In this document: positions 11,987-30,347 of the stretch, piece after piece
How positions within the stretch are numbered: the first letter of the stretch is position 1
Layout: every line of letters begins with the position of its first letter
Source of the DNA: Candidatus Binatia bacterium
GTDB lineage: Bacteria; Desulfobacterota; Binatia; UBA9968; JAJDTQ01
Assembly: GCA_963422385.1 (NCBI GenBank)
Contig: OY729432.1
Location: forward strand, 1,237,666-1,301,665
Direction: 5' to 3'
Length of the DNA stretch: 64,000 nt
Notes under the pieces: generated by a model
Seen by the model: only the letters and a program-made list of their open reading frames with translations
What the model was told of the DNA's origin: nothing
Database searches by the model: none
Position numbers and translations under genes: made by a program

Positions 11987-12411
11987 TCATCCGCCCGACG
12001 CCGCAGGCCCCGTTGACATCTCTCCCCATCCCTTCCACCGTGAGCCAGATCCCTGAACGCACCCCGCCGGTGCGGCAGTCGGCACCGCGTTCCACCCCTG
12101 CACAACCCCTCTGCCACCATCCTCCGACGCACCATGTCCGCAGAGAACGAGAGCCGGGCCGTAAGAGCGCGGGCAGAGATTGGATATCCGGGAGAGCATC
12201 CCCGCTGTTCCCAACCGCCTGCACAAAGGAGACGGCACCATGACTACCAGTGTCACCTCGCAATCCTGGTAACGCAGAGGGGTCTCCCGGGCAATCTGAA
12301 GAAATTCGCACCACTGTATCTTGTCGGGCATTCAGAGCGCCGGAACCGTAGAGTTAATTCAGAATGGCGGGATCGTCGGAAGTATCGTAACGGCAGGAAC
12401 TACGGCTCACG

Positions 12412-13116: not shown

Positions 13117-13177
13117 GCAGGGTTTCCAGGCTCCGTTTTCGTGGTCCGAACGGAAATGTCGGCAATGTGAGGTCAGG

Positions 13178-13998: not shown

Positions 13999-14150
13999 TT
14001 TCGCCTGCGAGAATCGATCTGGTTACGTCCGCCAGTAGTATATCGGGCTCCGTTTCACGACCGATCCGGTGCCTGTCGTGCGTCACCGCCTTCCCCGGAA
14101 ACCGCTGTTGTGAATGCATGGAGTCCAATATACACCATAGCGTTGGAGAA

Positions 14151-14165
14151 ACACCAAAATGGTGT
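14151..14165. promoter_or_regulatory. perfect palindrome ACACCAAAATGGTGT (with extra ACACCA/TGGTGG half-sites nearby) upstream of the six-gene operon; candidate operator
   Basis: ACACCA at 14133-14138, ACACCAaaaTGGTGT at 14151-14165, TGGTGG at 14171-14176. A sigma70-like TTGCCA-18-CACAAT lies at 14197-14226. About 215 bp upstream of ATG 14380. Confidence 0.35.
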
Positions 14166-14379
14166 AAAATTGGTGGCCGTTTCAAGGAGTTAGGAATTGC
14201 CACAGCCAAAGTCGGAGAGGCACAATGTTGGCCTGTCCGAAGTCGACCTTCTGTGGCGTGATTGATCCGACGGACCATGTCGGAATTCGTGGCGTGGCAC
14301 CGCCACGGCCTCGCTCAGGATCTGCCGCTACGACGCCTCGAACCGGATTCGCGCGGCAGCAAGAAGGCGGGAGGATCGC

Positions 14380-16554
14380 ATGACGCATGATCCGGTGGTG
14401 CAGGACGATCCCGTTATCGCAACGGCGGAAGGAACGCTGCGGTTGCTGGACGGAGTTCGGCCACTCTACATGCTGCCTGCGGATCCGCTGGCGGAGGAAG
14501 TCCTGATCCCGGGCTTCCAGGCGGCGGGGAAGGTTGATTGCATCATGGTTGGGTTCTTCTCAAGCGAGGTGCTGGCCTCGCTTGCCCCCGGCCTCGCGAC
14601 CTACATCGCCGGTTCCGAGAACAGCTTCCGGCTTATCGTAAGCCCCCTGCTACAGACCGAAGACCAGGTGGCCATAGAGGACGGCCTGAAATCGGCGGAA
14701 GTAGTAGCGGACAGGATTCTCGAAGAACTGACCGTCACGGAGGACCTTCTTCAGCGCCATACGCTGAAGTGCCTGTCGTGGCTGCTCCGGGAGCGCAGAA
14801 TCGAAATCAAGGTCGCCCTGATGAAGGATGCTCTCTTTCATCCCAAGGTCTGGCTCTTCGAGAACAGGTCTGATGTCGTCGCGGCGCACGGGTCGAGCAA
14901 CGTAACCATTGCGGGCATTTGGAAGAACATCGAACAGATCGCCATATCCAGGTCGTGGCAGGACCCGAATCAGCGTTATATCACTGGCAAGCTTCGCTAC
15001 GAATTCGGCCGGTTGTGGGAGAACAAGGACGAGAACTGTATCGTCATCGCGATGCCGGAGGCGGTCAGACAGCGCCTGCTGCGGACGTACAGTTCAGAAT
15101 TCCCACCGACCGAAGACGAGCTGCGTGCTCTCTACGGTCGCGCGACAGGCGTATCGGAGGAGCCCGAACCCTACGAGGCCGTTTCAGTACCGGCGACGAG
15201 TTTCGCGATACCAGGCTGGCTGAGTTACAAAGACGGACCATTCGAACACCAGGGAAAAGCGGTCGATGCATGGGACGAGGCCCGGTATCGCGGTGTTCTG
15301 GAAATGGCGACCGGCTCGGGCAAGACGATCACCTCTATGATCGGCGCGTACCGTCTCTGCCAACGACACAAGCCTCTCCTGATCGTCGTCGCCGCGCCTT
15401 ATGTGCCGCTAATCGAACAGTGGTGCGATGAAATCGCGCCGTTCGGCTTGAAGCCGGTCAACCTCACCACGGCCGGGAGCGCCGCGAAACGCGCGAGCGA
15501 GTTGCAAAAACTGAAACGACGGCTGCGCACCGGCCTGTCGGATGTTGAAGCGGTTGTCGTCAGCCACGACACGCTGTGCACTCCGGAGTTCCTTGCCGCC
15601 ATCGAGGCGTTCGACTGCGCACGCCTACTGATCGCGGACGAGGTGCACAACCTCGGGCGGCCATCCTTTATCAACGATCCGCCCGAATTCTTCGAGTACC
15701 GTCTTGGCCTCTCGGCGACGCCGATACGCCAGTATGACGAAGACGGAACGGAAGCGTTGTTTGGGTTCTTCGGACCTGTGGCCTTCCGGTTCACGCTCGA
15801 AGAAGCCATCGGCCAGTGCCTTGTCGAATACGACTACTACGTCCATGCCGTGTACCTCACGAAAAGTGAGATGGACGAATGGTTCGACCTCACGGGAAAA
15901 ATCAAGCAGAACGCGTGGCGCAGTGAGGGCGGAAAGCCGGAAGAATATCTCGCCAAGTTGCTGCGGGACCGGCGCGCTTTGCTGGAGACGGCGTCGGGCA
16001 AGGTTGCCACCCTAGGTACTCTTCTGAAGGAAGAGAACACGGGCAACCTGCGGCACACGCTGGTCTACACGTCGGACAAGGGACCAGATCAGCTCGACAA
16101 CGTGAACCGGCTGCTGCGACACAGGAATATCCTGTTCCACCAGCTCACAGCCAAGGAGACAGCAAGCCGGCATCAGACGAAGCAGATCATCAAATCCTTT
16201 CAGGAGGGTGAAATCCAGATGCTGACCGCAAAGCGTGTGCTAGACGAAGGGGTGAACATCCCGCAGATATGCAAGGCGTTCATCCTCGCGAGCACGACGG
16301 TCGAACGGCAATGGGTGCAGCGGCGCGGGCGACTTCTGCGCAAATGCAGCGCCATTGGCAAGACTCACAGCGTCATCCACGACCTGCTAGCCCTACCACC
16401 GGGCATGGAGGAAGGGCTAGATACCGATGCGCGCGCTCTTGTGCGCTCAGAGCTGCACCGGGCACAGGAATTTGCGAGGCTTGCGAGAAATGCAGGCCGA
16501 CCGGACGGGCCGCTGGTGACAATCGATAGAATGGTTGACGCCGCGTTCCTGTAG
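14380..16554 (+). CDS. PLD-family nuclease / SF2 (DEAH-type, ResIII-like) helicase fusion protein
   Basis: 724 aa. N-terminal HxK...GSSN phospholipase-D-like motif (HPKVWLFENRSDVVAAHGSSNVT). Helicase motifs I (ATGSGKT), II (DEVHNL), III (LSATP), VI (QRRGRLLR). GGGAGGA 4 nt upstream of the ATG. First gene of the operon. Confidence 0.82.
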   Translation: MTHDPVVQDDPVIATAEGTLRLLDGVRPLYMLPADPLAEEVLIPGFQAAGKVDCIMVGFFSSEVLASLAPGLATYIAGSENSFRLIVSPLLQTEDQVAIEDGLKSAEVVADRILEELTVTEDLLQRHTLKCLSWLLRERRIEIKVALMKDALFHPKVWLFENRSDVVAAHGSSNVTIAGIWKNIEQIAISRSWQDPNQRYITGKLRYEFGRLWENKDENCIVIAMPEAVRQRLLRTYSSEFPPTEDELRALYGRATGVSEEPEPYEAVSVPATSFAIPGWLSYKDGPFEHQGKAVDAWDEARYRGVLEMATGSGKTITSMIGAYRLCQRHKPLLIVVAAPYVPLIEQWCDEIAPFGLKPVNLTTAGSAAKRASELQKLKRRLRTGLSDVEAVVVSHDTLCTPEFLAAIEAFDCARLLIADEVHNLGRPSFINDPPEFFEYRLGLSATPIRQYDEDGTEALFGFFGPVAFRFTLEEAIGQCLVEYDYYVHAVYLTKSEMDEWFDLTGKIKQNAWRSEGGKPEEYLAKLLRDRRALLETASGKVATLGTLLKEENTGNLRHTLVYTSDKGPDQLDNVNRLLRHRNILFHQLTAKETASRHQTKQIIKSFQEGEIQMLTAKRVLDEGVNIPQICKAFILASTTVERQWVQRRGRLLRKCSAIGKTHSVIHDLLALPPGMEEGLDTDARALVRSELHRAQEFARLARNAGRPDGPLVTIDRMVDAAFL

Positions 16555-16571
16555 CGGCTGGAGGAAGAGAT

Positions 16572-16817
16572 ATGGCACTAAACGACAAAAAGATAATCTC
16601 GATCATCCTTGAGCAGTACTCGGGAATCGAGAAACGGTGCGAAGGCTACCGGGAACAGATTATCCAAGTGATTTCCGAAATTCTGGAATACGAACGAAGC
16701 CACAGGGTCTCCGCGACGAATATCCAGAAGAAGATCAACGACAAGTGCAACGCCACGGCGCGGTTCCTTGCGACGCAGCGCGGCCAAGACACCGGCACGG
16801 AGGAACTGGACTCATGA
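16572..16817 (+). CDS. small hypothetical protein (81 aa)
   Basis: Natural composition (MALNDKKIISIILEQYSGIEKRCEGYREQIIQVISEILEYERSHRV...). Its stop overlaps the next start (ATGA at 16814-16817), indicating translational coupling. Confidence 0.5.
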   Translation: MALNDKKIISIILEQYSGIEKRCEGYREQIIQVISEILEYERSHRVSATNIQKKINDKCNATARFLATQRGQDTGTEELDS

Positions 16818-18949
16818 AACTTCTCCGCGCCGAATTTCAGAACTTCCGTCTGCTCCGCGACCTTGAGCTTGAATTCTCCAGCGATCCCGACAGGAAGCTG
16901 ACGGTCATCCGCGCGGCGAATGAGTCGGGCAAGACGACGATCCTTCACGGCCTGCAATGGGTGCTCTATGGAGACGGGGCGTTACCTGGTAAAGGCGAGG
17001 GCTTTCGGCTCCATCCTATCGACTGGGATGCCAGCGAAGGCCAGCGCGTCCCGATCACAGCCACGGTGAAGTTCGAGTTGACGAAGTATCGTCGCACTTC
17101 AGGTGAAATGCGCGAAATGCGCCGGCGCTATCGCCTCGTGCGCTCCGCATTCGAGGATGTCGACAGTCAGGTCCATCGTTCCGCCTCGACCGTGAAGCTG
17201 TTTGCGCTGAACGAGACTGGAGCAAGTCCTATCGACGCGCCGGAAGCTCTGGTCAACGAGGAACTGCCGCCGGAGCTGCGGGAAGTCTTTTTCACCGATG
17301 GCGACCGGGCTCTAAGCTTTATTGAGGCGGATATCGCCCTGTCCACAAAACGCGAGCGCGTGCAGCGGGCGATCCGTTCCCTTCTCGGCCTCGGCGTGAT
17401 CGACGACGCAATCAAGCATGTGCGCAAATCGGCGGCGGAAGTGAACAAGAAGGCGAAACAGGTCGGTGGCGGCAGCGAACTGAACGCAATCGCTACGCGC
17501 CTCGAAGAGATGGAAAACAACCGCGAGAAATTAGAGGCCGACCTTGATGACGCGAAACAGCAATTCGGCGCTTTCGACGAGAAGATTGACGAAATCGATC
17601 GCAAGATCGCAGCGGCCCTCCAGAAGGGTGACAAGGAGAAGCTGCGCAAGGACCTCGACCACGCACGGGCCGAAATCAGGCACTTCGACAGCCAACTGGC
17701 GGCAGCGAACAAAGAACACTCGGCACTGTTTCACAGTCGGTCTATTGCAACCGACCTGCTCGCACCTGTGCTCACGGGCGCATTTGACAAGCTGGAAGAG
17801 TTGCACGACCAAGGCAAGATTCCGAACACGACGATCCCAGTGCTGCATGACCGCCTTGAAGCAAAAGTGTGCATTTGTGGCGAAACGCTGGAACCTGGTA
17901 ACCCGGGTGGCGACAAGCGCCGCGCGCGTATCCGAAAGCTGATCGACGACAACCAGCGCGTCGATGAAATCCAGGAAATCATCACAGACCTGTACTACAG
18001 CGCAAAGCCGCTACAGGGCAGCGGCGGATCGAGCGGGTGGCTAGAGGAATACAAGAAAGTGGTCAAGGGTCGCGACGGCATCCAGGCACTACGCGACAAA
18101 GCGGGCCGGAAGTTCCGAGCGCTGGAAATGCAGCTCGACTCGCTTCCCGACACGGACATCCAGGGCCTGCGCGAAACGTGCCGCCAGTACAAGGACAATC
18201 GTGACCGCCACCTGTCGAAAAGGTCGGCCATCGAAACCCAGCTTATGGGGCTGAGGCGCGATCGCGAAGGGATGGAAGCGAAGCGCGACCGCCGGCTGCG
18301 CGAACAGAAAAAGGGCGCGCGTATTCTGGCCGAGCGGGACGTCACGCAGGACGTGATGAAGGTGCTGAAAAGCGCTTATGCGCAAATTACGAACGAGGAA
18401 TTGCAAAAAGTCAGCGATCTGATGAACAGCATATTCCTCGAAATGATCGGTGCGGACCCTGAACAGGGCGCAATCATCCGGCACGCTGAGATCAGCCCGG
18501 AATTCGATATCATTGTCTATGGTCCGCAGGACAGGACACTTAACCCCGACCGGGACCTGAACGGTGCGTCACGGCGGGCGCTGACGCTCGCATTCATTCT
18601 GGCGCTGACGAAGGTCAGCGAGGTCGAAGCGCCGAATGTGATCGATACGCCGCTCGGCATGACGAGCGGCTTTGTGAAACGGTCTATTCTGCGCACGGCC
18701 GTGCGGGAGAGTGCGCAACTGATCCTGTTCCTGACGCACGATGAAATCGCCGGCTGCGAGGAGATCATCGACGAGGCCGCGGGCGTCGTCTTCACGCTGA
18801 CGAACCCGGCGCACTATCCGAAAATGCTCATCAACGATCCGGGGGTCGTCGAGCGCAAGGTGGTCCGCTGCGCCTGCGACCACTTGAACGAATGTGAACT
18901 CTGCCAGCGCCGCTCGGATGCGGAGGTCGAGTTGGGTATAGCGTCATAG
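16814..18949 (+). CDS. SMC/Rad50/DndD-like ABC ATPase with coiled coil, central CxC zinc hook and C-terminal Cys cluster
   Basis: 711 aa from ATG 16814. N-terminal FQNFRLL...IRAANESGKTTILHGLQWVLYG Walker A. About 350 aa of coiled coil with KVCICGE in the middle. C-terminal ABC signature/D-loop region (LTLAFILAL...VIDTPLGM...LFLTHD) and CACDHLNECELC. Confidence 0.82.
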   Translation: MKLLRAEFQNFRLLRDLELEFSSDPDRKLTVIRAANESGKTTILHGLQWVLYGDGALPGKGEGFRLHPIDWDASEGQRVPITATVKFELTKYRRTSGEMREMRRRYRLVRSAFEDVDSQVHRSASTVKLFALNETGASPIDAPEALVNEELPPELREVFFTDGDRALSFIEADIALSTKRERVQRAIRSLLGLGVIDDAIKHVRKSAAEVNKKAKQVGGGSELNAIATRLEEMENNREKLEADLDDAKQQFGAFDEKIDEIDRKIAAALQKGDKEKLRKDLDHARAEIRHFDSQLAAANKEHSALFHSRSIATDLLAPVLTGAFDKLEELHDQGKIPNTTIPVLHDRLEAKVCICGETLEPGNPGGDKRRARIRKLIDDNQRVDEIQEIITDLYYSAKPLQGSGGSSGWLEEYKKVVKGRDGIQALRDKAGRKFRALEMQLDSLPDTDIQGLRETCRQYKDNRDRHLSKRSAIETQLMGLRRDREGMEAKRDRRLREQKKGARILAERDVTQDVMKVLKSAYAQITNEELQKVSDLMNSIFLEMIGADPEQGAIIRHAEISPEFDIIVYGPQDRTLNPDRDLNGASRRALTLAFILALTKVSEVEAPNVIDTPLGMTSGFVKRSILRTAVRESAQLILFLTHDEIAGCEEIIDEAAGVVFTLTNPAHYPKMLINDPGVVERKVVRCACDHLNECELCQRRSDAEVELGIAS

Positions 18950-18955
18950 GAGGCG

Positions 18956-19420
18956 ATGATGACGGATCGATATTTCAATCCGTTCCAGGCAATCGATATC
19001 AACGTGCCAGTCGAATTCCATGAGGCGTTCATACGGTACTGCCAGCGAAGCGCCAACGCGGTGATCGACCAGAGCCCGTTTCCGCGCATGGTCGATCTCT
19101 GGTTCCTGTCCGTATGCGTCGCGAGTCGGCTCGGGCTTGATCCCGCCGACATCGCGAAATTCGATACGCGCAAGATCATTGATGGGTCGATATTTGGCAG
19201 CGATCCATGGCGTGTTCACACGATCATGCTCATTGCGATTGGCACATTGGGCGATGTGCAGGTCGTCTCCGAACCCCGCAAAATGATGACGCTGGCTAAC
19301 GGCCTTGCCGTGGCCGGCCTTCCAAAAGTCATCGAAATGCTCAAGGACGGCGATGCGGAACCGATCTGGAACCTGTCGGACGCTGTTGACGCTCTCTTGC
19401 GCAAAGAGAGGACAGCGTAG
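18956..19420 (+). CDS. hypothetical protein (154 aa) coupled to the SMC-like ATPase
   Basis: ATG 7 bp after the ATPase stop, with GGAGG spanning that stop. Natural composition; no motif recognised. Confidence 0.55.
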   Translation: MMTDRYFNPFQAIDINVPVEFHEAFIRYCQRSANAVIDQSPFPRMVDLWFLSVCVASRLGLDPADIAKFDTRKIIDGSIFGSDPWRVHTIMLIAIGTLGDVQVVSEPRKMMTLANGLAVAGLPKVIEMLKDGDAEPIWNLSDAVDALLRKERTA

Positions 19421-19534
19421 GAGCCGGTGCATGTCGATATCGGTTTGTGGGAATGCCTGGCGAAAAGCCGAATTTGGTGGCAGCAGTTGGGCGGGCGTAA
19501 TTGGGAAGCCGCATAACAAACGGAGATAAACGGC

Positions 19535-21907
19535 TTGTTCAAGATTTGTGCCCGCACAGTTCTGGAGCTAGGCGCTGAACTTATCAGTTCCGATGTCATC
19601 GCGTTCTATGAACTGATCAAGAATGCATTCGATGCCGAGTCCCCGACGGGAGCCGAGATTCGTTTCGAGATCACCCTGAGACGGAACGATTACCTGAAAT
19701 TCCGCCATCGGGCGGTCGAAGGACTTGCAGATATAGAGCATCTGAAATCCGACATCGAGAAATCACTCGACCAGTCGGCGCCGAAGGACTCACTGAACCG
19801 TTTCCGCAACGCGATACAGGGTGCGGATAATCTGGAAGAGCTTGTTGGAGTTCTGGACGCGGCGCACGCTTCGGAGAACAGGATTATCGTGTCCGACGAG
19901 GGCACGGGGATGTCGCGACAGGATTTGATAGACAACTATCTCGTTATCGGCACGGCATCGCGCAAGCGCGCGATCAACGCGGCCCTTGCGGGACACCACG
20001 CGGGAGACCGGCGCGCCCCGTTCCTCGGCGAGAAAGGCATCGGTCGGCTGTCGGCGATGCGACTCGGCGACCGGCTGATGGTCGAAACGGCCGAGCGTCG
20101 CGACAAGCGGCTAAACCTGCTCAGGATCGACTGGTCGGTTTTCGAAGACCTCGACGCGATGCTGGACGAGATCCATGTCGCGCCCGAGCATGGCACGTCC
20201 AAGCCGGATGGGAACTGGAGCGGCACGAAGCTGATTATGACCGCGCTCACTGCGGACTGGACGCATGATCGCGTCAAGCATCTTGGCGAGCATGATATTG
20301 CGCGGCTGACCGACCCGTTTGCCGATGTGAAACGGCGTCCACGTATCGCGATCTTCTGGAACGGCACACGCATCCCGGTTGCTCATATGAATCGAAACCT
20401 GCTGTCGCACGCCCATGCGTCCGTCAAGGGCCGGTTCATATACAGAGAATCAGGACCGATGTTACAGTGCACTTTCGAGGCGCTCGATCTTGGGTTTGAG
20501 CATCCGCACGAAGTGGAGAAGAGAGAATTTGTGCGGGCCGACCTCGAGGGCTCGATCATCGGTACCTCCAGCGAAGTTCCGTTGTCCGCACTTGATGGTC
20601 TTGGACCGTTCGAGTTCGAGGTCTACTGGTTTAACCGGCAGCGCCTCGGTCGCATCGACAGCATCGGCGACCGAAAGATTGTCCGTGACCTGCAAAGGAG
20701 GTGGTCAGGAATCCTGCTGTTCCGCGACGGGTTTCGCGTACTTCCCTATGGGGAAGATGATGACGACTGGCTTGCTCTGGACCGGCGCGCTCTGGCCAGC
20801 ACCGGATATCTCTTGAACAAGACACAGTTCGTCGGACGAGCCACAATCTCCCGTCTTGGCAATCCGTTGCTGATTGACCAGACAAACCGTGAAGGCTTGC
20901 GGGTTTGCTCCGAACAGCAAGCGTTCGTCAGCTTGTTGCAGCTCGCTATCCAGTCTCAGCTTCGCGATTTCATCCGGGAAGTCGAGCGCCGTCACAAGAA
21001 CCAACCTCTTGACATGACCGAGGCAAAGACCGGTGTGTCGAACCTCGAAAAGAGAGCGAAGGCCGCCCTCCGCCAGATCAGGAAAATTGCACCACAGTCC
21101 TCCGAGACGATCGAGGAATTGCAGCACACCTTCTTCGAGATCAAGGAGTTCTTCGACCGGGCGCAGCGCCGAATCGACGAAGTGGAGAGCGAGAACCGAC
21201 AGATGGTGCAGATGGCGGGCGTGGGTCTCTTGGTCGAAGTTGTAGCGCATGAACTTGCGCGATCGACCGAGAATGCGCTGGCGGCTCTTGAGGCTCTGCG
21301 CGGCAGGGACCTACCGGAACAGATCGGCGGCCTGCTCAACGCCCTCAGATCGGAGATGACATCGGTCAGTAAACGCGTCCGCGTGCTCGACCCGCTGAGC
21401 GTATCAGGACGACAACGCAAGGAAAGCTTCGATTTCGGCGCGTTGATTGAGGACATACTGAGCGGGCACGAGCTTCAGTTCGAACGTCATGACGTAAAAC
21501 TCAAGGCCAGCTTGCCTGACAACACCGTCCGCATCCGCGCGGTGAAGGGCATGCTCGTGCAGATTTTCGAAAACCTCTTGTCCAACTCGCTATACTGGCT
21601 CGACCTCCGTAAACAGCATGAGCCAAACTTTCGGCCGCGGATTGCCATTGCGATGGAAGACGACCCTCTCACGATCATCTATGAGGACAATGGCCGCGGA
21701 ATTGCACAAGAGAATCGTGAAAGCGTCTTTCGTGCCTTCTTCTCTCTGAAGGAGAAGTCGAAGCGCCGGGGGCTTGGCTTGTATATCGCGCGCGAATGCG
21801 CAGAATATCATGGTGGCAGCTTGACGCTGGACAATCACGTCAATCGCCAGACGGGACGCCTTCACCGTTTTGTGCTGCGACTGCCGGACGAGGTTATGGT
21901 CTCGTGA
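19535..21907 (+). CDS. dual GHKL ATPase: N-terminal MORC/MutL-like domain plus C-terminal histidine-kinase-like (H-box plus HATPase_c) module
   Basis: 790 aa. N-terminal N-box ELIKNAFDA, G1 DEGTGM, G2 GEKGIGRLS. C-terminal VAHELARSTEN (H-box-like), N-box ENLLSNSLYW, G1 EDNGRGI, G2 GLGLYIAREC. A 115-bp gap upstream suggests a possible internal promoter. Confidence 0.78.
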   Translation: MFKICARTVLELGAELISSDVIAFYELIKNAFDAESPTGAEIRFEITLRRNDYLKFRHRAVEGLADIEHLKSDIEKSLDQSAPKDSLNRFRNAIQGADNLEELVGVLDAAHASENRIIVSDEGTGMSRQDLIDNYLVIGTASRKRAINAALAGHHAGDRRAPFLGEKGIGRLSAMRLGDRLMVETAERRDKRLNLLRIDWSVFEDLDAMLDEIHVAPEHGTSKPDGNWSGTKLIMTALTADWTHDRVKHLGEHDIARLTDPFADVKRRPRIAIFWNGTRIPVAHMNRNLLSHAHASVKGRFIYRESGPMLQCTFEALDLGFEHPHEVEKREFVRADLEGSIIGTSSEVPLSALDGLGPFEFEVYWFNRQRLGRIDSIGDRKIVRDLQRRWSGILLFRDGFRVLPYGEDDDDWLALDRRALASTGYLLNKTQFVGRATISRLGNPLLIDQTNREGLRVCSEQQAFVSLLQLAIQSQLRDFIREVERRHKNQPLDMTEAKTGVSNLEKRAKAALRQIRKIAPQSSETIEELQHTFFEIKEFFDRAQRRIDEVESENRQMVQMAGVGLLVEVVAHELARSTENALAALEALRGRDLPEQIGGLLNALRSEMTSVSKRVRVLDPLSVSGRQRKESFDFGALIEDILSGHELQFERHDVKLKASLPDNTVRIRAVKGMLVQIFENLLSNSLYWLDLRKQHEPNFRPRIAIAMEDDPLTIIYEDNGRGIAQENRESVFRAFFSLKEKSKRRGLGLYIARECAEYHGGSLTLDNHVNRQTGRLHRFVLRLPDEVMVS

Positions 21908-23814
21908 CGGAGCTGAAGGATCTTCTCGCAGCACGGGGAATCACACGCGCCCTCGTCATAGACGACGTGTTTGACTCCCTTCCACGTCCCGAGGAACTCA
22001 ATGACGGTGATTGGTCGAATTTCTTCGATGACCTCGGCGATGCCGGAAACGAACTGCTCAAGGAATTGTATAAAGGATATGAAGAAGCATCAGCCGAAGA
22101 GCTGAAGGCATCTCAGGATTTTATCACGGTAGTTTGGGAAAACCGTACGAAACTGCCGAACGCGGCCTGCGATCACCTGTTCCACGACTATGAGGAGACG
22201 AAGACTACGGAACGCGCGGGCCTCGATGTGCTCGTCGGCGCACTGGGAGCGCTGGGGCTGGCCTGCACAACGATGGGGCGCGAACTTAACGAGGGAGCGA
22301 AGCAAGCAGAGCTGATCTTTGTCGACTTGTTCTTGGGTTTCCATCAGTCCGAAGACGATATGGAACGAGCAGTCAGACGTGTCGGTGAACTGGTCGAAGG
22401 GCGTGTTCAGAACCCGCCGCTCGTCGTCCTCATGTCACGTAGTCCCCGGCTTCAGGAAAAACGAAACGAGTTTCGGGACACGGCGGGACTCTTAGGGTCC
22501 ACGTTTCGCGTCGTCAGCAAAGCTGACCTCGCCAGGGAAGGAACGCTGGAGACCCTGTTGACGCGGCTGGCGAATCACTACGAGGACGCAAAACGTGTTG
22601 CTGGCTTTGTCCATGCGTGGGACAGCGGCCTCGACCAGGCACGGCGGAATTTTGTCCGCATACTGCGCCGTCTGGATCTATCGGACCTTGCACAGGTGCG
22701 GGCGCTGCTGCTCGACTTCGAGGGGCAGCGCCTCGGTGAGTATCTTCTCGACGTTGCCGACCGGGTTTTGCAGCATGAGATAGAAGATGACGACAATACG
22801 ATTGCGGCGGCTCTGAAGCTGAACAAAATCGATTTGAGAAAATACCCAGCCCCGCATCTGGCCGGTTCTCCGGATTTGCAGGAACTCGTGCACCGCATGG
22901 TGTTTGTGCACCCTGATCGCCTGCGTCTTTCGGCGAACGAAAACAAGGTGCAATTGCAGTTTGGCGACGTGCTGCGTTGGAAGGCTGATGAGGGCGATGG
23001 CTACGGTGGTGCTGTTTCGCTGGTCGTGAGTCCGGCATGTGATCTTGTGCGCGACGGCGCCGAGCGCGTCATGCTGCTTTCGGGTACGCTCGAAGAGCTT
23101 CAGCCCAAGAATTGGTCTTACAGGGCCGGCCCGATCAGAACAGCCATTGTGATACTACCCGACGAGGGGCGGAAGTGGATCAGGTGGAACCTCAAGAATG
23201 TCAGAAGCCTGGAGTGGAACAAGCTGGACAAGTTGATCGGAGAGGACGTCAGTCTAAAGCGCATTGGCCGGCTCCGGGAAATCTACGCAATCGAAATCCA
23301 GCAAATGCTCCTGACGAACCTAGGCCGAATCGGCCAGCCCGCGAACCTGCCGGTCCCATTCCCGGTTGCCATTTCGTTGTTCTACGTAGGAATCGATTGC
23401 AAGGCGCGTAGACTTGCTGTCAACCATATCGACTCCGCTGCCTGCTACGTCGGGCGCGGCGAAAGGCCGCAACCGGTACACCGGCTGGTCCTGTCGGAGC
23501 AAACTTGCGATCACATAGAGCAGGCTTTGCAGGCGTTGGGCCAGGATGCCGTTCGGCAATCCGCCCAAGCCAGCCTTGCAGCCGTAAAGGCGGACCGCGA
23601 CTTCTTCACCAAGTTCGAGCGAGGCGAGATCGAGATGCCCACCGACGCAGGCACGAAGGTCATCAAGGCGGACAACAATAGGGTCTATGCCGCGATCATT
23701 CGAGGCGGAAAATTCGACGAAGGAAGTGATATCGTAGGCGAACCCCGGAAAGCGGCTTTGATCGTCAAAGTGACGGATATCGCCGGCCATGACGGGGACC
23801 AAAACGGTCCCTGA
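21904..23814 (+). CDS. hypothetical protein (636 aa), last gene of the operon; possibly a receiver-like N-terminus
   Basis: GTG start overlapping the preceding stop (GTGA). N-terminal ...RALVIDDVFD... and later ...LIFVDLFLG...PPLVVLMSRS... resemble a degenerate receiver domain (inference only). The remainder is unassigned. Confidence 0.6.
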   Translation: MTELKDLLAARGITRALVIDDVFDSLPRPEELNDGDWSNFFDDLGDAGNELLKELYKGYEEASAEELKASQDFITVVWENRTKLPNAACDHLFHDYEETKTTERAGLDVLVGALGALGLACTTMGRELNEGAKQAELIFVDLFLGFHQSEDDMERAVRRVGELVEGRVQNPPLVVLMSRSPRLQEKRNEFRDTAGLLGSTFRVVSKADLAREGTLETLLTRLANHYEDAKRVAGFVHAWDSGLDQARRNFVRILRRLDLSDLAQVRALLLDFEGQRLGEYLLDVADRVLQHEIEDDDNTIAAALKLNKIDLRKYPAPHLAGSPDLQELVHRMVFVHPDRLRLSANENKVQLQFGDVLRWKADEGDGYGGAVSLVVSPACDLVRDGAERVMLLSGTLEELQPKNWSYRAGPIRTAIVILPDEGRKWIRWNLKNVRSLEWNKLDKLIGEDVSLKRIGRLREIYAIEIQQMLLTNLGRIGQPANLPVPFPVAISLFYVGIDCKARRLAVNHIDSAACYVGRGERPQPVHRLVLSEQTCDHIEQALQALGQDAVRQSAQASLAAVKADRDFFTKFERGEIEMPTDAGTKVIKADNNRVYAAIIRGGKFDEGSDIVGEPRKAALIVKVTDIAGHDGDQNGP

Positions 23815-23817
23815 GAC

Positions 23818-24657
23818 CTACTTGTGGCAGGCAAGACAAACCTTTGCCTGCCCGTACAGGTCGTCAATGTCCAGCGGCTCGATATCCGGCCTTAAGGGGT
23901 TGGTCTGTACCTTCGAGCGCATCCGTGCAAGCCGTTGTTCATGATCCTGCCTGATCTGTTCGACGCGATCCGGCCGTTCCAGATCTTCAAGCGACTCCCC
24001 CTGACTCCAGGTAAAAGGCGAGCCGTGCTCGACGGCGTTCTTCTCGTATGCCTTGGCCTCTTCGAACGCCTCAGGGTGCTGCTCTTTGAGCCGTACCCAT
24101 TCAATCTTTTGCTGGAAGAAGCAGAAGGTGCAGCCGCTACGCGTGCGCCAGGAATAGTATTTGGGTAGACCGAGCCCAGCCCCATCGAGAATCTCAAGGA
24201 CCCCTGCCTTGTCGATCCCCGCCTGCTTGAACGGCAAGTTGATGACCAGGTTGTCGTGCTTGGAAGAATAGCCTTCGCGGTATTCCTCATCGCTGCGGAT
24301 CGCGACGTAACTATGGACCGTCGTCCCATCGACCAGCAGCGGGCGAAGCCAGTGCTCGAACGGACGGAGTTTTAGCTGCCGCGTGCACCAGCGCGTCTGT
24401 GGCGAAGGAAGGAAATCATTGTATTGCTTGAGCCAGAAGTCGAAGTCGCGGTCCGGGTTCAGTTTGCGTATCGGTTGACCGAGAAATCCCTCCAGCAGCC
24501 CGAGATATTCGTAAACCTCGGGCAGTTCCTTGCCCGTATCCGTAAAAAAGTATTCGATTTCGAGTTCGGGGTGACGCTGTCGCATGTAAACGGCGAGCGC
24601 CGCGCTGTCGCGCCCGCCGGATAGGCCAAGTACGTGTTTCACAGGACCGGTCGTCAA
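23818..24657 (-). CDS. sspD: SspD/DndC-like PAPS-reductase-family ATP pyrophosphatase (phosphorothioation)
   Basis: 279 aa with PP-loop LSGGRDS and conserved Cys cluster (CTFC...). TTG start overlaps the sspC stop. Small size fits SspD rather than the roughly 500-aa DndC. Confidence 0.8.
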   Translation of the reverse strand: MTTGPVKHVLGLSGGRDSAALAVYMRQRHPELEIEYFFTDTGKELPEVYEYLGLLEGFLGQPIRKLNPDRDFDFWLKQYNDFLPSPQTRWCTRQLKLRPFEHWLRPLLVDGTTVHSYVAIRSDEEYREGYSSKHDNLVINLPFKQAGIDKAGVLEILDGAGLGLPKYYSWRTRSGCTFCFFQQKIEWVRLKEQHPEAFEEAKAYEKNAVEHGSPFTWSQGESLEDLERPDRVEQIRQDHEQRLARMRSKVQTNPLRPDIEPLDIDDLYGQAKVCLACHK

Positions 24658-27600
24658 GAAGCGGCCTTTTCTTTCCCATTTTTTTGTGCAGGCGGATAAT
24701 TTTGCATGTAGCGCGTGCTGAGTTCCGCCAGCGCCGCCAGAATGATGCTCCGGCGGCTAGTGTCGGCGGCCTCCAACGAGGCGGCAACACGCTCGATGAG
24801 ATCATTGACGGCAACACGGTCGGCGTCGGCGATGTCGAATTCCTCGAGCAGCGGCACCGGCCGGCCGTCCATACCGATGATGACGGCCATGGCCTGTCGC
24901 TTGTCGGGGCGGCCCTGAACGCGCGCATACGTCTCGGCCCGGAGGAATTTCTGCGCCATGTCGGCAAGCTCGATTGCCGCATGGTCTATATCGGGATCGA
25001 CCCATTCACGCGGCGACTTGTTCGCGGCAAGACTCGCGATCCCTTCGAAACTCTCGTCCGAACCGTCGAACTGCGCCAGTCGGCCGACGAAGGCGTCGAG
25101 CCGGAAATCTCCGGCAAGCCGCCTGATATTCTCGGCGCGCTTGCGCAATTCCACCAGGGACTGCGGAGAGACGTTAGGAACCTGCATCTCCTCCAGCATG
25201 ATATCGCGCAGGCGGTGAAGCATCGACGGATAGGCCATTACCAGTTCTTCCAGGCCTTCGCGGACGCTTACGACGACACGGCGCAAACCGTCTTCGTCTT
25301 CATTGGCAAGCGAAACGTCTTCGCCAAGCGTTTCCGGTATGTCGTCGAACAGGAACCGGTTGGGATCGTGCGCCCGTTTGAACAGATCGCGAATTTTTAC
25401 AGCATTGGATGACAGCCGCATCGTCAGCCCGGTCCATTTGGGAAGCCGGTCGTAGATCCCGACAAGGCCGCGCCCGACATCGATGGGCTCCAGGTGAACA
25501 AGCTCGTTCGCGTCGTCGAGATCGCGGACTACCTGCGCCATACCCGACAACAAGCGGCGTGCAACATCGGTCAGATCCATCCAGCGCAACTGGATGAAGG
25601 TCGGGTCCTTGGCAAGATACTCCACGTCCACGTCGTCGAACTTGGTCCTAAATATGCCATTCCGGTAGACCGCCAGTTTTTTGTGCTGGGACAGAACGAA
25701 TGCTACGGCAAGGATCGGCATGAGACCGTCCTTCACGCCAAAGGGCATCTCGCGCCATAGTTCGAACAGCTCGGATACCGCGACGGTGCGCGAGGAGCGT
25801 TCCTTCACATGGTCGAGCGCGGCAGTCCACAGCGGGGCCAGGTGGCAAGGATCTGCACCATTCGTCGGGGCAACGAATCGCCACCCCTTGCCTTCCCGGG
25901 CATAGAGCCCAGTCGCTTCCAGGACGGATTCGAACAGCCCACCCTCGGCCGGGTACCCTTGGATACCAAGGCGAGCTTCGCCCTCGTTCAGGACCATGCG
26001 GCGCAACAGGGCGTTCTGTGCCGCGATGGCATTGCTTGACGGTTTCTGCCGACTCAGCAATTCGTTATGCAGCCGCGGCGACTTCGCGAAGCGGCGGTCT
26101 GCTAGCTCGGAGGCGATGCCGTTCAGATCGGCCTGCCGCAGGCGTTTGGGCAGGTAGTTTTTCCGGAACCACAGCGCATTGTCGAATGCCTTGTGCAGTT
26201 CGGTTTCAAGCAGGGCCTGCAAGGCCGCAAGGCGAGCGGAGACTTCCCGCCGCGCAACGAAATCGCCCGCGAGTTCCGGATGATCATTGCTGACACTATC
26301 GAGCGCAAACAGCTCCCGCGCTAGGGGCACAACTACCCATGACTTTTTCGAAATCCCGACGACGACGTCCCATGCATCGCTATACCGCGCGGCTTTGCGG
26401 CACAGGTCCTCGGCACAGGCCTCGCTCTCTCCCTCGGTCGGAATCGCCAGCAGGAATTGTCCTATAGCGCCGTTCTCCGGCCCAAGCCTCGTGGCGAATT
26501 CGACGAGGCCACTGATCGGCACGACGTATACGTCGAACCATCTCAGCGCGCCGGTGTCATGATAGTGGCGCTTGGCGAGGATCGGCTGAAGTCCCGCGAC
26601 GGATTTCAACTCGGTGAAATCCACCTCGTCAATCTCGTCGAGCGCGGCCCGCACCGCTCTATCAATATCGAAATCGCTCCCTGCGAAGATGGCGCGTGCG
26701 TCGAGGAATTTCTTGAAGATCGTGAACGACCATGTGTCCAGTTGCGAGAGCACTTTTTCAAGCGCCTTGTCCGATGTACCGTGGAAACAGGTGCGCAGCA
26801 GGTCAAAATTTGCCACGAGGCCCGAGCGTTCCTTGAACAGGTCAATGACGGCGATTGTCTTGAGTAACCCGACATGAAGGGAGTCGCCGCCAATGGATTC
26901 GCATCGTTCGATCGCTTCCGCTGCCAAGGCCCACCGATGTCCGTCCGGCGAAGCGAGGATGGACGGTTCCAGGTTGGCGCGAAGATAGTCCCAAAGCCGG
27001 TCGGGGCCGTACAGTTCGCCGTCCCCGTCATGGTTCAGATAGTCCTGAAATCCGTGCGGTTCGGAGGAATTCAGGAAACCGAATATGCTGCGCTGATTTT
27101 GCCCGAATCGCCGCCGCGATATCGGTCCAAGCAAACAAGCGACAACGGGATGCAGTGGCCAGCATGCTTCCAGCATTGCGGCGAGCCGTGCAACGTCACC
27201 AGCGCGTTCCCGACGTGCGAAACCGGCGACGGCGGACGCGAGCGGGCCGGGCTTCTTTGGACGATAATCACTCTCGATGGCGCGTGAGATCAGGTCGATT
27301 TGCTCTTCAACCGCAGTGTTGACAACGAGGTCGATGAAACGCCCCTGAACTTTCGCCCACTCGTCGCGCATTTCGTGCGAGAGGCGATGGGCGTATTCCT
27401 CGAACGCTTGGTGCAACACGCCGATGACAAGAAAACGCCCCTTGCTTCGCGACGCGGCTTCAGCAAGCTGCTGGAGGATGTAGATGTCGGAGCCGTCCCG
27501 CGCGGCGGCCTCCAGAAACTTGCCCATCTCGTCGATGACCAGGACTAGCCCGCCGTGCGTCTTCGGCCTGGATGCAGCCGCCTCGGTCAGGGTGTCGATC

Positions 27601-28049
27601 AGATTGCTTTCAGTCCAGCCGTCGCGTGGCTGCCGTGCCACGAGTCCTGTTCGCTTCACAGCCTCGCCGATGACCGCGACGGGGTCGTCGCGACGCGCGA
27701 CGACGGGAAGGATGCGCCATCCCTTCGTGCCTGTCGGTAACGCGGTCCAGATCGTTTTCGCCAGATTCTGTCCGAAGACCCCGGCGGCCTCCTTCTGCAA
27801 ACCGGCCTTGCCCCTCAGCAAGGCGCTCAGGGCCACGACGAGGCTCGATTTGCCGCTGCCGTAGGGACCTGTCCATGTGAATGCGCCTTGGCCCGTTTCG
27901 GAGACGTGGCGCGCCATCGTTGCCAGAACATCGGCGGATGACTGCGGACAAATGAATCCTTCAAGGGCGGCGGCGTCACCGAGATCGGCATCAATGCGGA
28001 TCGATCTGAGAAAACGGCGGGCGATCCAGACACGTTCGTTGAGCACCAT
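24654..28049 (-). CDS. sspC: SspC-like large P-loop ATPase (DUF499/BrxC-like)
   Basis: 1131 aa with N-terminal Walker A TGPYGSGKSSL and Walker B LVLVIDEMGKF. ATG 28049 is preceded by GAGGAGG and overlaps the sspB stop (ATGA). Confidence 0.75.
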   Translation of the reverse strand: MVLNERVWIARRFLRSIRIDADLGDAAALEGFICPQSSADVLATMARHVSETGQGAFTWTGPYGSGKSSLVVALSALLRGKAGLQKEAAGVFGQNLAKTIWTALPTGTKGWRILPVVARRDDPVAVIGEAVKRTGLVARQPRDGWTESNLIDTLTEAAASRPKTHGGLVLVIDEMGKFLEAAARDGSDIYILQQLAEAASRSKGRFLVIGVLHQAFEEYAHRLSHEMRDEWAKVQGRFIDLVVNTAVEEQIDLISRAIESDYRPKKPGPLASAVAGFARRERAGDVARLAAMLEACWPLHPVVACLLGPISRRRFGQNQRSIFGFLNSSEPHGFQDYLNHDGDGELYGPDRLWDYLRANLEPSILASPDGHRWALAAEAIERCESIGGDSLHVGLLKTIAVIDLFKERSGLVANFDLLRTCFHGTSDKALEKVLSQLDTWSFTIFKKFLDARAIFAGSDFDIDRAVRAALDEIDEVDFTELKSVAGLQPILAKRHYHDTGALRWFDVYVVPISGLVEFATRLGPENGAIGQFLLAIPTEGESEACAEDLCRKAARYSDAWDVVVGISKKSWVVVPLARELFALDSVSNDHPELAGDFVARREVSARLAALQALLETELHKAFDNALWFRKNYLPKRLRQADLNGIASELADRRFAKSPRLHNELLSRQKPSSNAIAAQNALLRRMVLNEGEARLGIQGYPAEGGLFESVLEATGLYAREGKGWRFVAPTNGADPCHLAPLWTAALDHVKERSSRTVAVSELFELWREMPFGVKDGLMPILAVAFVLSQHKKLAVYRNGIFRTKFDDVDVEYLAKDPTFIQLRWMDLTDVARRLLSGMAQVVRDLDDANELVHLEPIDVGRGLVGIYDRLPKWTGLTMRLSSNAVKIRDLFKRAHDPNRFLFDDIPETLGEDVSLANEDEDGLRRVVVSVREGLEELVMAYPSMLHRLRDIMLEEMQVPNVSPQSLVELRKRAENIRRLAGDFRLDAFVGRLAQFDGSDESFEGIASLAANKSPREWVDPDIDHAAIELADMAQKFLRAETYARVQGRPDKRQAMAVIIGMDGRPVPLLEEFDIADADRVAVNDLIERVAASLEAADTSRRSIILAALAELSTRYMQNYPPAQKNGKEKAAS

Positions 28050-29005
28050 CACGCATCCTCCTCAGCGGGCCCGCCGTAATCGCCTCGAATCCACAACAAG
28101 GCTGCCTCTTTACTGATTTCGACGTTGCGCTCAACATGCTTTACCCCGGCGGTTTCGGTCCAGCGGAGCGCGCCGCCCGTCACGTCTTCGAGCGTCGCCA
28201 AGCGGTCAGCCACATCGTTCTCATCGAAAAGGAACACGCGGCCAGGCCCGCCGGGCGCATGGGCGATGGCCTCGAACGAGAGCGTGGCGACATTCGGAGC
28301 GTAGCGCGACCAGAAGTCGATCAGCGCATAGGTAAAAACAGCATCGCCCAATGTCGTCTTGGGACCTCGCACAAAGCGGAAGCCGTCCTTCCTGCCGATG
28401 GCCTTGATCAGCCCGAGTTCCGTGAGAGGCGACTCAAGCGCGTCGTCGTGCCCGGTCTTGCCGGACAGTTGCCGCGCGACATAGGTGCGAATGAAACATG
28501 CGACGTCATTTCTTATCGTCGTGTTAGCGGGCTGAGGCCAATTACGGTCCTTGGCAAGACGGTCGAGCCTCTTGATTAGCCCGTCCCGCTCGAAGGTGAC
28601 GGCGGGATAGTGGCTGAACGCCCAGAACCACGTCGTCTTCTCCTCGCGGGCCGCCAACTGCCAATGGATCAGCCACAGCGTGGTGGGGTGCTCCATATAC
28701 GGATCAAGGCCTTTCGGGCCGAACAAGAGATCACCGAGTTCCGTCGTTTGAACGGAAGTCGTTTCCGGCTCGGAGATTATTCCGCTGGCTTTCGCCCAAT
28801 GGCGCATCGACGTGACCATGTTCTTGCCGACGCCGAATCGCGCGATGGCGTCTTTGTCCCAACAGGCGGCCCTGTTGCCGGGTCGGTCTTGGGTTTCAGC
28901 GACGCGGTCGTACACCTTCTTCAGCCACCCGTAGCGCAACGGGAAGGTATCGTGGCCTGAGAATTGCGGGATGTAGTCTGTTTGATATAAAGGACCGTGT
29001 GACAT
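28049..29005 (-). CDS. sspB: SspB-like protein (DUF4007-type; proposed nickase of Ssp systems)
   Basis: Start set at ATG 29005 (GAGGGGAG immediately upstream), giving MSHGPLYQTDYIPQFSGHDTFPLRYGWLKK... (318 aa). Position between sspA and sspC, size and N-terminal motif fit SspB; the family call needs HMM confirmation. Confidence 0.68.
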   Translation of the reverse strand: MSHGPLYQTDYIPQFSGHDTFPLRYGWLKKVYDRVAETQDRPGNRAACWDKDAIARFGVGKNMVTSMRHWAKASGIISEPETTSVQTTELGDLLFGPKGLDPYMEHPTTLWLIHWQLAAREEKTTWFWAFSHYPAVTFERDGLIKRLDRLAKDRNWPQPANTTIRNDVACFIRTYVARQLSGKTGHDDALESPLTELGLIKAIGRKDGFRFVRGPKTTLGDAVFTYALIDFWSRYAPNVATLSFEAIAHAPGGPGRVFLFDENDVADRLATLEDVTGGALRWTETAGVKHVERNVEISKEAALLWIRGDYGGPAEEDA

Positions 29006-29159
29006 GCTCCCCTCGGTCACTGGATGATGCCTCCAGTTCGACTGTAGCCGACGAGTCATGCTATGGTCAACAGATACTTGGATGGTGCACCTAGAAGCAC
29101 ACGGTCGCCGGAACCCCGGCAATCAACAAGCCTTTGTGGTTCTAACTCATTGAAGCACA

Positions 29160-30347
29160 ATGAAAATTAGAAACACGATCTACCTTGATCATCAGGCGAC
29201 GACCCCGGTCGATCCGCGTGTTTTGGCCGAAATGACGCCCTATTTCAGCGACTCGTTCGGTAATCCGCACTCGTCGGATCATTGCCTCGGGTGGGAATCT
29301 TCACGCGCCGTCGAGGTCGCCGCCGCGCGAGTCGCACACCTGATCGGCGCGGACGCAAACGAAATCACCTTCACGTCCGGCGCAACCGAGTCGAACAATT
29401 TTGCCCTGCTCGGCCTCGGACACTACGCGGCGTGCGGCAAGCGCCGCCGAATTCTGCTGAGCGCCATCGAGCATAAATGCGTGTTGGCGGTGGGAAGAGT
29501 CCTGGACGAGCGCTACGGGTTCGTCGTCGAGTCGATCCCCGTCGATTGCGAAGGTTTCGTGAAGCTGTCGGCTCTCGAAGCAAAGCTAGACGAAAGTGTT
29601 CTTGCCGTGTCGGTCATGGCAGTGAACAACGAGATCGGAACCATACAGGACATCGAGAGAATCTCGCAGCTCGTAAGAGACTGCGGCGCCCTATTCCATT
29701 GCGATGCGGCGCAAGCGCCTGTTGCAATGAACGTCGAAGGAATTGGAAGGCATGCTGATGTCCTCAGTCTCTCGTCGCACAAGATGTACGGGCCGAAAGG
29801 GATCGGCGTCGTCTATATCGCGCGCGGGTTGCAAGACAGGTTCGAACCCCTGATCTACGGCGGCGGCCAACAGAACGGTTTACGCTCAGGCACCGTGCCC
29901 GTTCCGCTCTGCGTTGGCATGGGGGCTGCAGCAGGTTTACTGGTTGGCGACACCGCCGAGGAAAGGCGCGCGAACCTGAGCCGTCGGCGCGACATGTTCG
30001 TCGAAAAACTGAAGGGCCTGACGTGGCCGGTGGCTGTAAATGGCCCTGGAAATCGCGACCGGCATCCGGGCAACGCGAATGTGCGATTCGCGGGTTTTGC
30101 CGCGCATGACACCTTGAACACGCTTCAACCGCGACTCGCAGCCTCAACGGGTTCTGCTTGCACCTCCGGTATCCCGGAGCCTTCACACGTCTTAAGGGCA
30201 ATTGGTCTAAACACTGACGATGCCGAGTCTTCTATCCGTTTCAGCCTCGGCTTCAGTACAAGTGATGAAGACGTTGAAGAGGCTGTGGGCCTGATTGACG
30301 AGACGTTGGCGAAATTGTCGAAGACCAAGCCGGTGTGCTCAGCCTGA
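29160..30347 (+). CDS. sspA: cysteine desulfurase (IscS/NifS class V; SspA/DndA-like)
   Basis: 395 aa with PLP-lysine motif SSHKMYGPKG and active-site Cys in STGSACTSG. Divergent from sspB across a 154-bp intergenic region. Confidence 0.88.
   Translation: MKIRNTIYLDHQATTPVDPRVLAEMTPYFSDSFGNPHSSDHCLGWESSRAVEVAAARVAHLIGADANEITFTSGATESNNFALLGLGHYAACGKRRRILLSAIEHKCVLAVGRVLDERYGFVVESIPVDCEGFVKLSALEAKLDESVLAVSVMAVNNEIGTIQDIERISQLVRDCGALFHCDAAQAPVAMNVEGIGRHADVLSLSSHKMYGPKGIGVVYIARGLQDRFEPLIYGGGQQNGLRSGTVPVPLCVGMGAAAGLLVGDTAEERRANLSRRRDMFVEKLKGLTWPVAVNGPGNRDRHPGNANVRFAGFAAHDTLNTLQPRLAASTGSACTSGIPEPSHVLRAIGLNTDDAESSIRFSLGFSTSDEDVEEAVGLIDETLAKLSKTKPVCSA

Follow-up and report, generated by a model that had tools for sequence, protein, structure and literature searches.

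A dual-GHKL histidine-kinase-like protein and a receiver-like partner encoded beside the Ssp DNA phosphorothioation genes

Results

A gene pair between a Pbe-like block and sspABCD

We analysed a 64,000-nt stretch of contig OY729432.1 from a Candidatus Binatia bacterium (hereafter the window), in which two adjoining genes, A and B, encode a dual-GHKL histidine-kinase-like protein and a partner with a receiver-like N-terminus. The pair lies between a Pbe-like block and the sspABCD genes of phosphorothioate (PT) DNA modification (Table 1). Gene A starts with TTG, preceded by GGAG ~9 nt upstream. Gene B starts with the GTG of a GTGA that overlaps the TGA stop of gene A by 4 nt, and its homologues begin at the matching MTELK... 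position.

Gene A encodes two GHKL modules and a histidine kinase core

The product of gene A is a soluble kinase-like protein with two complete GHKL (Bergerat-fold) modules, as a first-pass annotation of the sequence had proposed. Pfam places HATPase_c_3 at aa 111-204 (E=5e-13) and HATPase_c at aa 673-785 (E=2e-19), and at least 120 homologues of ~790 aa were found among the matches listed. The N-terminal module contains E26, N30 and D33, D121xGxG125 and G165xKGxG170, with a helical insert at aa ~46-110. Its MORC-like character, also part of that annotation, was borne out by the HATPase_c_3 match and by the alignment of aa 81-192 with Hsp90-family N domains (GRP94/TRAP1/HtpG, E~1e-5). The module further aligns with the BbrUII/HgiDII restriction-enzyme family NF050001 of NCBIfam (E=5e-15), in line with the paraMORC-like restriction context that had been cited as a precedent, and PADLOC gave the protein a weak REase_II match. 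A itself showed no nuclease domain.

The most conserved stretch of the protein is not an ATPase module but aa 357-458 of the middle domain (WSGILLFRDGFRVLPYGEDDDDW...DQTNREGL), with a mean column conservation of 0.78, above that of both modules; W365, N367, R368, W390, G392, R397, R401, G406, D411, W412 and R452 are invariant. Pfam detected no S5-type transducer domain over aa 240-520, where confidence in the AlphaFold2 (AF2) model is low.

C-terminal to the stalk, A resembles a histidine kinase core. The segment VAHELARS, suspected earlier to be an H-box ahead of the second GHKL module, falls (as vvahelarste) on the H-box of solved kinases such as LvrB and lies in a DHp hairpin, where the putative phospho-acceptor His572 has its codon at 21248-21250. 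The N, G1, F and G2 boxes of the CA module are N680/N684, D718xGxG722, F732 and G746xG748. A profile built from 29 A homologues aligned aa ~528-785 with solved histidine kinases (LvrB, E=5.5e-14), NCBIfam histidine-kinase models aligned over the same region, and Foldseek superposed the C-terminal ~230 residues of the AlphaFold model on the DHp+CA cores of HK853, WalK, CpxA and ZraS (prob 1.0, TM-target 0.6-0.66). Across 34 family members with 30-89% identity, Acinetobacter baumannii included, H572-E573 and all ATP-binding motifs of both modules are invariant.

Gene B encodes a receiver-like domain and a putative output domain

Searches of Pfam, NCBIfam and PADLOC returned no match for B or for 52 diverse relatives, and an exhaustive profile search (E<=1e-3) put the family at 922 clusters at 50% identity. 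AF2 modelled aa 1-215 with a pLDDT (predicted local distance difference test) of 80-93 in the order β1, helical insert, β2-α-β3-α-β4-α-β5, which places D20/D21 after β1, D141 (22324-22326) after β3, S178 after β4 and K206 after β5. The motifs RALVIDDVFD, VDLFLG, VVLMSRS and FRVVSK (K), which had prompted the idea of a receiver, indeed sit at the C-terminal ends of β1, β3, β4 and β5, and the large insertion noticed along with them is the ~90-residue helical insert between β1 and β2, 85-97 aa long in every family member. The suggestion that the receiver might be degenerate did not hold: the full set D20, D21, D141, S178 and K206 is invariant in 52 full-length members that are 23-50% identical to the window protein (mean column identity of the alignment, 29%).

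Alignment of B with a small receiver (REC) alignment in hhalign gave P=1.4e-5 and a probability of 80%, in a register that puts D141 on D57, S178 on T87 and K206 on K109 of CheY; with the insert removed, the acidic pair also aligns to the receiver profile. By topology, catalytic residues and profile alignment, the N-terminus of B thus appears receiver-like, standing outside the Pfam receiver families. A check of HisKA and REC folds, which the first-pass annotation had recommended, found a DHp fold in A (AF2, Foldseek), a predicted (βα)5 fold in B, and His572 and Asp141 invariant in homologues. Catalytic residues are intact in all three nucleotide/phosphoryl sites of the pair, and their invariance across diverse homologues is, as judged from these alignments, far above chance.

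We also considered a HAD phosphatase, with its helical cap after β1 and aspartyl phosphate, for the N-terminus of B. HAD enzymes carry their motifs along the chain in the order D, S/T, K, DD; this reading was rejected because the order in B (DD, D, S, K) matches that of receivers.

A different account dispenses with the phosphorelay: A would be a MORC-like DNA clamp whose second GHKL module merely hydrolyses ATP, and the N-terminus of B a docking pseudo-receiver. Pseudo-receivers and kinase-dead histidine-kinase-like ATPases are known, curated receiver models do not match B, and the fold search with B gave no specific match. However, the phospho-acceptor Asp or the metal-binding acidic pair is typically missing from pseudo-receivers, whereas all five receiver residues of B persist across 23-50% identity and H572-E573 of A across 30-89% identity. 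Such conservation is hard to explain without phosphoryl chemistry and counts against this account, which we consider quite improbable.

Beyond the receiver-like domain, a conserved helical linker leads into a β-rich C-terminal domain, the putative output of the protein. Its invariant residues are D355, C379-D380 (23038-23043), W428 and R475, and its signature is GD-x(~20)-hhhh[ST]PxCD[LI], read in the window as FGD...SLVVSPACDLV. The last ~135 residues (aa 501-636) are the most variable part of B. B showed neither a helix-turn-helix (HTH) nor any other DNA-binding domain as its output. Caspase/CHAT, sortase and PD-(D/E)xK readings of PxCD were rejected, there being no invariant His (H318 varies) and no (D/E)xK. 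The GD...PxCD motif is also found in the B partner of A. baumannii and in a 340-aa 'response regulator' of Campylobacter jejuni, which reads GD...IILTPSCDIV; the likeness of the latter to the B motif is short and weak, and on these sequences an output domain seems to be common to B and the C. jejuni protein. Separately, a 269-aa open reading frame (ORF) in locus L043 (1769-2578; also in L042) consists of the B C-terminal domain alone (profile positions 368-629), close to a phage-type integrase and lacking a neighbouring kinase gene; it represents either a remnant or an output domain that exists on its own.

In both proteins the worst-modelled stretches, A aa 368-457 and B aa 246-347 (the latter at 22639-22944), are the most conserved ones, with pLDDT <50. 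These segments may need the A-B complex, or DNA, in order to fold.

The pair is widespread and linked to ssp genes

Conservation of the A-B pair extends over at least 10 phyla, and wherever the flanks are long enough the pair adjoins sspABCD. A genome scan yielded 23 loci in metagenome-assembled genomes, from Binatia, Thermodesulfobacteriota, Rhodospirillales, Acidobacteriota, Latescibacterota, Gemmatimonadota, Burkholderiales, Rhodothermales and Spirochaetia, and a metagenome scan was aimed at the most distant clade, whose B proteins are 24-39% identical. Wherever a locus includes the upstream sequence, gene A is found immediately upstream of gene B and on its strand. The ssp genes were present in 21/23 genome loci, the remaining two being cut by contig ends, and beside the pair in 6/6 plasmid or chromosome records; sspABCD adjoins the pair in 8/8 metagenome loci with long flanks, where Pbe genes are absent. 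In a further locus, L031, an SspH-like FtsK-domain giant gene precedes the pair, and in L026 the contig ends 2 kb upstream.

The Pbe-like block is a frequent, dispensable neighbour: it occurs in most of the 23 genome loci and is absent in L005, L008, L010, L015 and L017, in L024-L038 and in all plasmid/chromosome records. We therefore weighed whether A and B might be the fifth and sixth subunits of the upstream Pbe-like system, with no function of their own with Ssp. The pair does follow the block on the same strand at a distance of 115 nt, and all six genes stay together in most of the 23 genome loci, among them those of Rhodothermales, in which four Pbe-like genes, the pair and the ssp genes are all co-directional. 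Against this, the pair and ssp genes occur without Pbe in the five genome loci just named, in L027-L038, in the plasmid records and in A. baumannii, and the described PbeABCD system comprises four genes, none of them a GHKL kinase (PMC10853773). We regard a role as Pbe subunits as very unlikely.

On several replicons the pair is the sole non-modification module beside sspABCD or sspBCD: Rhizorhabdus wittichii RW1 pSWIT01 (Swit_5323/5324), Ensifer adhaerens pC and Methylorubrum extorquens pME152, where it stands alone beside sspABCD, and A. baumannii. In A. baumannii VB1190 the genes that abut SspD-SspC-SspB encode a 779-aa 'sensor histidine kinase' and a hypothetical protein of 637 aa. The 637-aa partner matches the B profile (E=1e-16), has the PCD motif and carries near-canonical receiver motifs (ILIIDDE / LLIVDW / ILLTSH); its match to Response_reg_2 has E=2.8, its UniRef cluster is named 'Response receiver domain-containing protein', and an identical copy occurs on at least 1000 contigs.

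On two Agrobacterium plasmids, pAtK224b and that of T29, the pair precedes a block of three genes (two hypotheticals and an FtsK/SpoIIIE-domain protein), with SspD/C behind it. A PADLOC scan of the pAtK224b block identified its genes as SspF, SspG and SspH (E~0). The pair array of these loci (L045, Agrobacterium tumefaciens pAtK224b, 9635-25899; and L046) adjoins a VapBC toxin-antitoxin pair, an integrase and an 'RHE_PE00001 family' gene. Because VapBC and RHE_PE00001 recur as left-hand neighbours in Ensifer pC, the Agrobacterium and Ensifer loci are suggested to share a mobile-island backbone.

B diverges faster than A across loci (in L014, A is 75% and B 55% identical), as is typical of conflict-system components. 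In L015 (5272-9998), L021 (5004-9995) and L022 (10001-14009), an insertion of ~2-2.6 kb, presumably a mobile element, splits A or B; the pair is therefore inactivated in these genomes, in which the ssp genes are intact.

A divergent variant of a previously predicted two-component-like pair

In 2021, Bellieny-Rabelo, Pretorius and Moleleki predicted that proteins combining HATPase_c_3, a DHp-like HEF_HK domain and HATPase_c form two-component-like systems with an adjacent Response_reg_2 protein (Pfam PF19191 and PF19192, respectively; PMC8011034). They reported 91.6% linkage over 644 regions, enrichment near type II restriction-modification genes, C5 methylases, Vsr and HNH, and an inferred paraMORC origin; PT, Ssp and Dnd are nowhere mentioned in that paper. 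The window pair shares much with these systems: A is soluble with the same HATPase_c_3, DHp-like hairpin and HATPase_c architecture, its neighbour is receiver-like with conserved DD/D/T/K residues and loop extensions, the two genes are tightly adjacent or overlapping, and the setting is one of DNA modification, here by ssp genes and not methylases. HEF_HK covers A aa 563-622 end to end at 15.3 bits, under the cut-off of 24.1, and scores 24.5 bits, above the cut-off, in the A homologue P0199, 22.8 in that of L049, and 19.0 and 18.8 in others. The differences are that window A falls under the HEF_HK cut-off, that the B family has no Response_reg_2 match, that B has ~300 aa more and a receiver always interrupted by a helical insert of ~90 aa, and that the partner modification is Ssp phosphorothioation instead of C5 methylation. 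The window locus is thus a divergent, PT-linked variant of the pair type predicted in 2021.

A kinase-to-receiver step inside a PT-linked island had been put forward as new in the first-pass annotation. The link to Ssp and PT does appear undescribed, while the pair type itself was already predicted near restriction-modification genes (PMC8011034). We found no paper tying the pair to PT and no follow-up to that prediction; the clade's obligate Ssp linkage, its presence in A. baumannii and its unrecognised output domain appear not to have been described before.

Relatives of the pair lie near restriction-modification genes. In C. jejuni the kinase is followed by the 340-aa 'response regulator' (PF00072, E=2e-5) and dcm, and partners of related dual-GHKL kinases match Pfam Response_reg with E=2e-5 and 4e-3. 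A Bacteroides finegoldii plasmid (L051, 6713-11815) has the cassette in split form: a related dual-GHKL kinase is followed by a receiver-only protein of 209 aa, an HNH endonuclease encoded separately and an N6 DNA methylase. The arrangement hints at what the output domain of B does.

Comparison with known modification-linked and phosphorelay systems

Like SspE and SspFGH, the pair is encoded directly beside sspBCD, is modular and is sometimes stacked with other modules in one island, and in many genomes it occupies their place. A and B are unrelated to them in sequence, the PADLOC SspE, SspF, SspG and SspH models giving no match to either protein, and we know of no His-Asp chemistry in SspE or SspFGH.

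Detocs (DtcABC) consists of the kinase DtcA, the Hpt protein DtcB and the receiver-PNP effector DtcC. It had been offered as a precedent and proved an analogy only: the concept of a kinase signalling to a receiver fused to an effector in a defence context is alike, but there is no PADLOC match, no Hpt gene, no PNP-type effector and no third small gene between or after A and B, and the window kinase differs in its additional MORC-type ATPase and its tie to DNA-modification genes. With MORC/paraMORC proteins and the BbrUII/HgiDII type II enzymes (PMC2292703), A shares the N-terminal HATPase_c_3 and the restriction-modification neighbourhood, but adds a kinase-type GHKL module with a DHp. PbeABCD and the CxC ABC-ATPase systems are, like the pair, accessory modules of PT islands, and a Pbe-like block lies directly upstream here; A and B are nonetheless different proteins, and the pair is found without the block in many loci. 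Pbe was described together with Dnd genes (PMC6459918, PMC10853773), unlike the Pbe-like block of the window, which sits with Ssp.

Membership of A and B in SspE, SspFGH, Pbe, DndFGH or Detocs was rejected, as PADLOC gave no match beyond the weak REase_II hit of A. The same library does detect SspF/G/H, PbeA/C and SspA-D in neighbouring genes, and neither A nor B is among the PADLOC 2.0 families.

The island

The pair and its neighbours occupy a low-GC island at ~12-33 kb of the window, with a GC content of 0.58-0.60 compared to 0.65-0.67 in the flanks. Promoter and terminator scans of the island gave a signal no better than shuffled sequence, and no tRNA genes were found in the window. The real start of SspB is probably ~40 codons inside the called ORF.

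Table 1. Gene pair, its domains and flanking genes, in window positions.
Feature	Position	Strand	Evidence or remark
Gene A, dual-GHKL histidine-kinase-like, 790 aa	19535-21907	+	ORF; Pfam
A aa 1-240, N-terminal MORC/Hsp90-type GHKL module	19535-20254	+	HATPase_c_3
A aa 241-458, middle domain	20255-20908	+	conservation; fold not recognised
A aa 459-562, long helices, coiled-coil-like stalk into DHp	20909-21220	+	AF2 helices 459-486, 495-518, 520-551
A aa 563-622, DHp helical hairpin with H-box, HEF_HK-like	21221-21400	+	helices 563-588, 594-617 (AF2)
A aa 630-785, histidine-kinase CA GHKL module	21422-21889	+	HATPase_c, PDB alignments, Foldseek
Gene B, 636-aa partner	21904-23814	+	ORF, GTG start
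B aa 1-215, receiver-like (βα)5 domain	21904-22548	+	AF2 topology, invariants, hhalign
B aa 28-116, all-helical insert between β1 and β2	21985-22251	+	AF2 helices 34-116
B aa 216-347, conserved helical linker (LRRLDLSDLAQ..., invariant E294)	22549-22944	+	low-confidence prediction
B aa 348-625, β-rich C-terminal domain, putative output	22945-23778	+	AF2 and conservation
Whole Pbe-like block	14380-19420	+	115 nt 5' of gene A
PbeA-like HKD nuclease and SF2 helicase	14380-16554	+	PADLOC PbeA E=3e-191
81-aa protein in Pbe-like block	16572-16817	+	
PbeC-like CxC ABC ATPase, zinc hook VCICGE	16814-18949	+	PADLOC PbeC E=6e-51
154-aa protein in Pbe-like block	18956-19420	+	
SspD (PAPS-reductase-like)	23818-24657	-	PADLOC E=1.5e-136; convergent with gene B, gap 3 nt
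SspC ATPase	24654-28052	-	PADLOC E=0
SspB (DUF4007)	28049-29122	-	Pfam E=3e-86 from aa 54; PADLOC E=7e-107
SspA cysteine desulfurase	29160-30347	+	PADLOC E=1.4e-123; Pfam Aminotran_5

Several other observations concern the surroundings of the pair. First, the 154-aa protein holds the PbeD/DndE position of the Pbe-like block and is 57-90% identical in related loci, with no match to any Pfam, NCBIfam or PADLOC model. Second, a 234-aa ORF at the left edge of the island (12412-13116, minus strand) matches PDC-S05, a candidate defence family in PADLOC, over aa 120-179 (E=2.5e-10); it has no Pfam match. Third, an ORF at 6348-7172 (plus strand), which lies just beyond the island in a region of locally lower GC (0.59 at 6-8 kb), combines a weak N-terminal HARE-HTH-like region with the DNA-methyltransferase motif TDPPY and stops abruptly after ~270 aa; truncation or a frameshift of an N4/N6 methylase may account for it.

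Discussion

We lean, with rather more belief than doubt, towards reading A and B as a cytoplasmic, two-component-like phosphorelay that operates together with the neighbouring SspABCD and gates a C-terminal effector in B. The input would be received by the MORC/Hsp90-type ATPase module of A and its highly conserved middle domain. It would most plausibly be DNA engagement, by analogy with the MORC/paraMORC ATPases of restriction systems, and would report the host mark on DNA or an infection cue. The signal would then pass via the coiled-coil stalk to the C-terminal kinase core of A, which would autophosphorylate His572, and the phosphoryl group would move from His572 to Asp141 of the receiver-like domain of B. 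Phosphorylation of the receiver would turn on the output domain (D355, C379-D380), most likely a nuclease-type or other toxic effector directed at the cell or at DNA that lacks the mark. Alongside SspE and SspFGH, the pair would then make up a third type of Ssp-modification partner and, in broader terms, a plug-in restriction/sensor cassette whose relatives pair with C5- or N6-methylases in place of PT.

Several points weigh against this phosphorelay-effector reading. Pfam Response_reg (PF00072) matched neither B nor 52 diverse relatives nor 10 receiver sequences with the insert removed, and Response_reg_2 (PF19192) matched neither window B nor 52 diverse members nor five plasmid members. In Foldseek the full B model found no receiver among its best 50 PDB matches, only generic α/β proteins (Ras, LDH, SsuE) and long spurious alignments, and for the C-terminal domain of B no nuclease, enzyme, family or fold match was obtained from Pfam, a PDB-sequence profile search or Foldseek. 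The AlphaFold model of A has an overall pLDDT of 63, and falls below 50 at aa 368-457 (20636-20905), its most conserved segment. In the literature we found no experimental work on any family member. Lastly, complete restriction partners are often found together with the pair (SspFGH in Agrobacterium, the Pbe-like block in the window), and its role may therefore be accessory or regulatory and not that of the effector.

The last point bears on the possibility that the pair is a regulatory two-component system, tuning Ssp or a neighbouring restriction module and not acting as an effector. Two-component systems usually regulate, PT levels are known to be tightly controlled, and the output domain of B has no nuclease signature. 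The role would resemble that of DndB, whose autoregulation of dnd genes is cited in PMC10853773. B lacks, however, a detectable DNA-binding output domain, its invariant acidic and Cys residues suggest catalysis, and XRE-type regulators are separately encoded next to the ssp genes in some loci. We favour an effector role, restriction or abortive, over a purely regulatory one because the HNH nuclease of B. finegoldii stands in the place of the output domain and because the pair is the sole sspABCD partner in several replicons; pure regulation we judge unlikely.

A more general version of the phosphorelay-effector reading is offered tentatively, as one that may well prove too broad: a phosphorelay-gated restriction cassette in which a MORC-like ATPase would read DNA modification and His-Asp transfer would license a new GD...PxCD effector fold, coupled in different genomes to 5-methylcytosine, N6-methyladenine or PT. 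Such a cassette could be the missing partner of many orphan sspBCD clusters, including those of A. baumannii global clone 2. Only ~15% of sspBCD clusters have a known restriction partner (SspE 7.4%, SspFGH 7.3%; PMC8092258). In A. baumannii the dominant clinical lineage has Ssp and is missing SspE, and 5,518 of the 5,530 Ssp-positive genomes of global clone 2 are without it (PMC12421847).

As far as sequence evidence goes, the pair is likely a defence or signalling arm of the Ssp DNA-marking system, and it sits where an Ssp partner would be in A. baumannii and in at least 10 phyla. Current defence-system annotation misses it, as PADLOC 2.0 has no model for either protein and B is also absent from Pfam and NCBIfam. 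The question can now be put to the test with a defined gene pair and defined residues, H572, D141 and C379/D380. Should the phosphorelay prove to control an effector, modification-based immunity would gain His-Asp signalling among its self/non-self mechanisms, and a new effector domain would be defined; should the pair be regulatory, PT modification would have its first dedicated signalling input.

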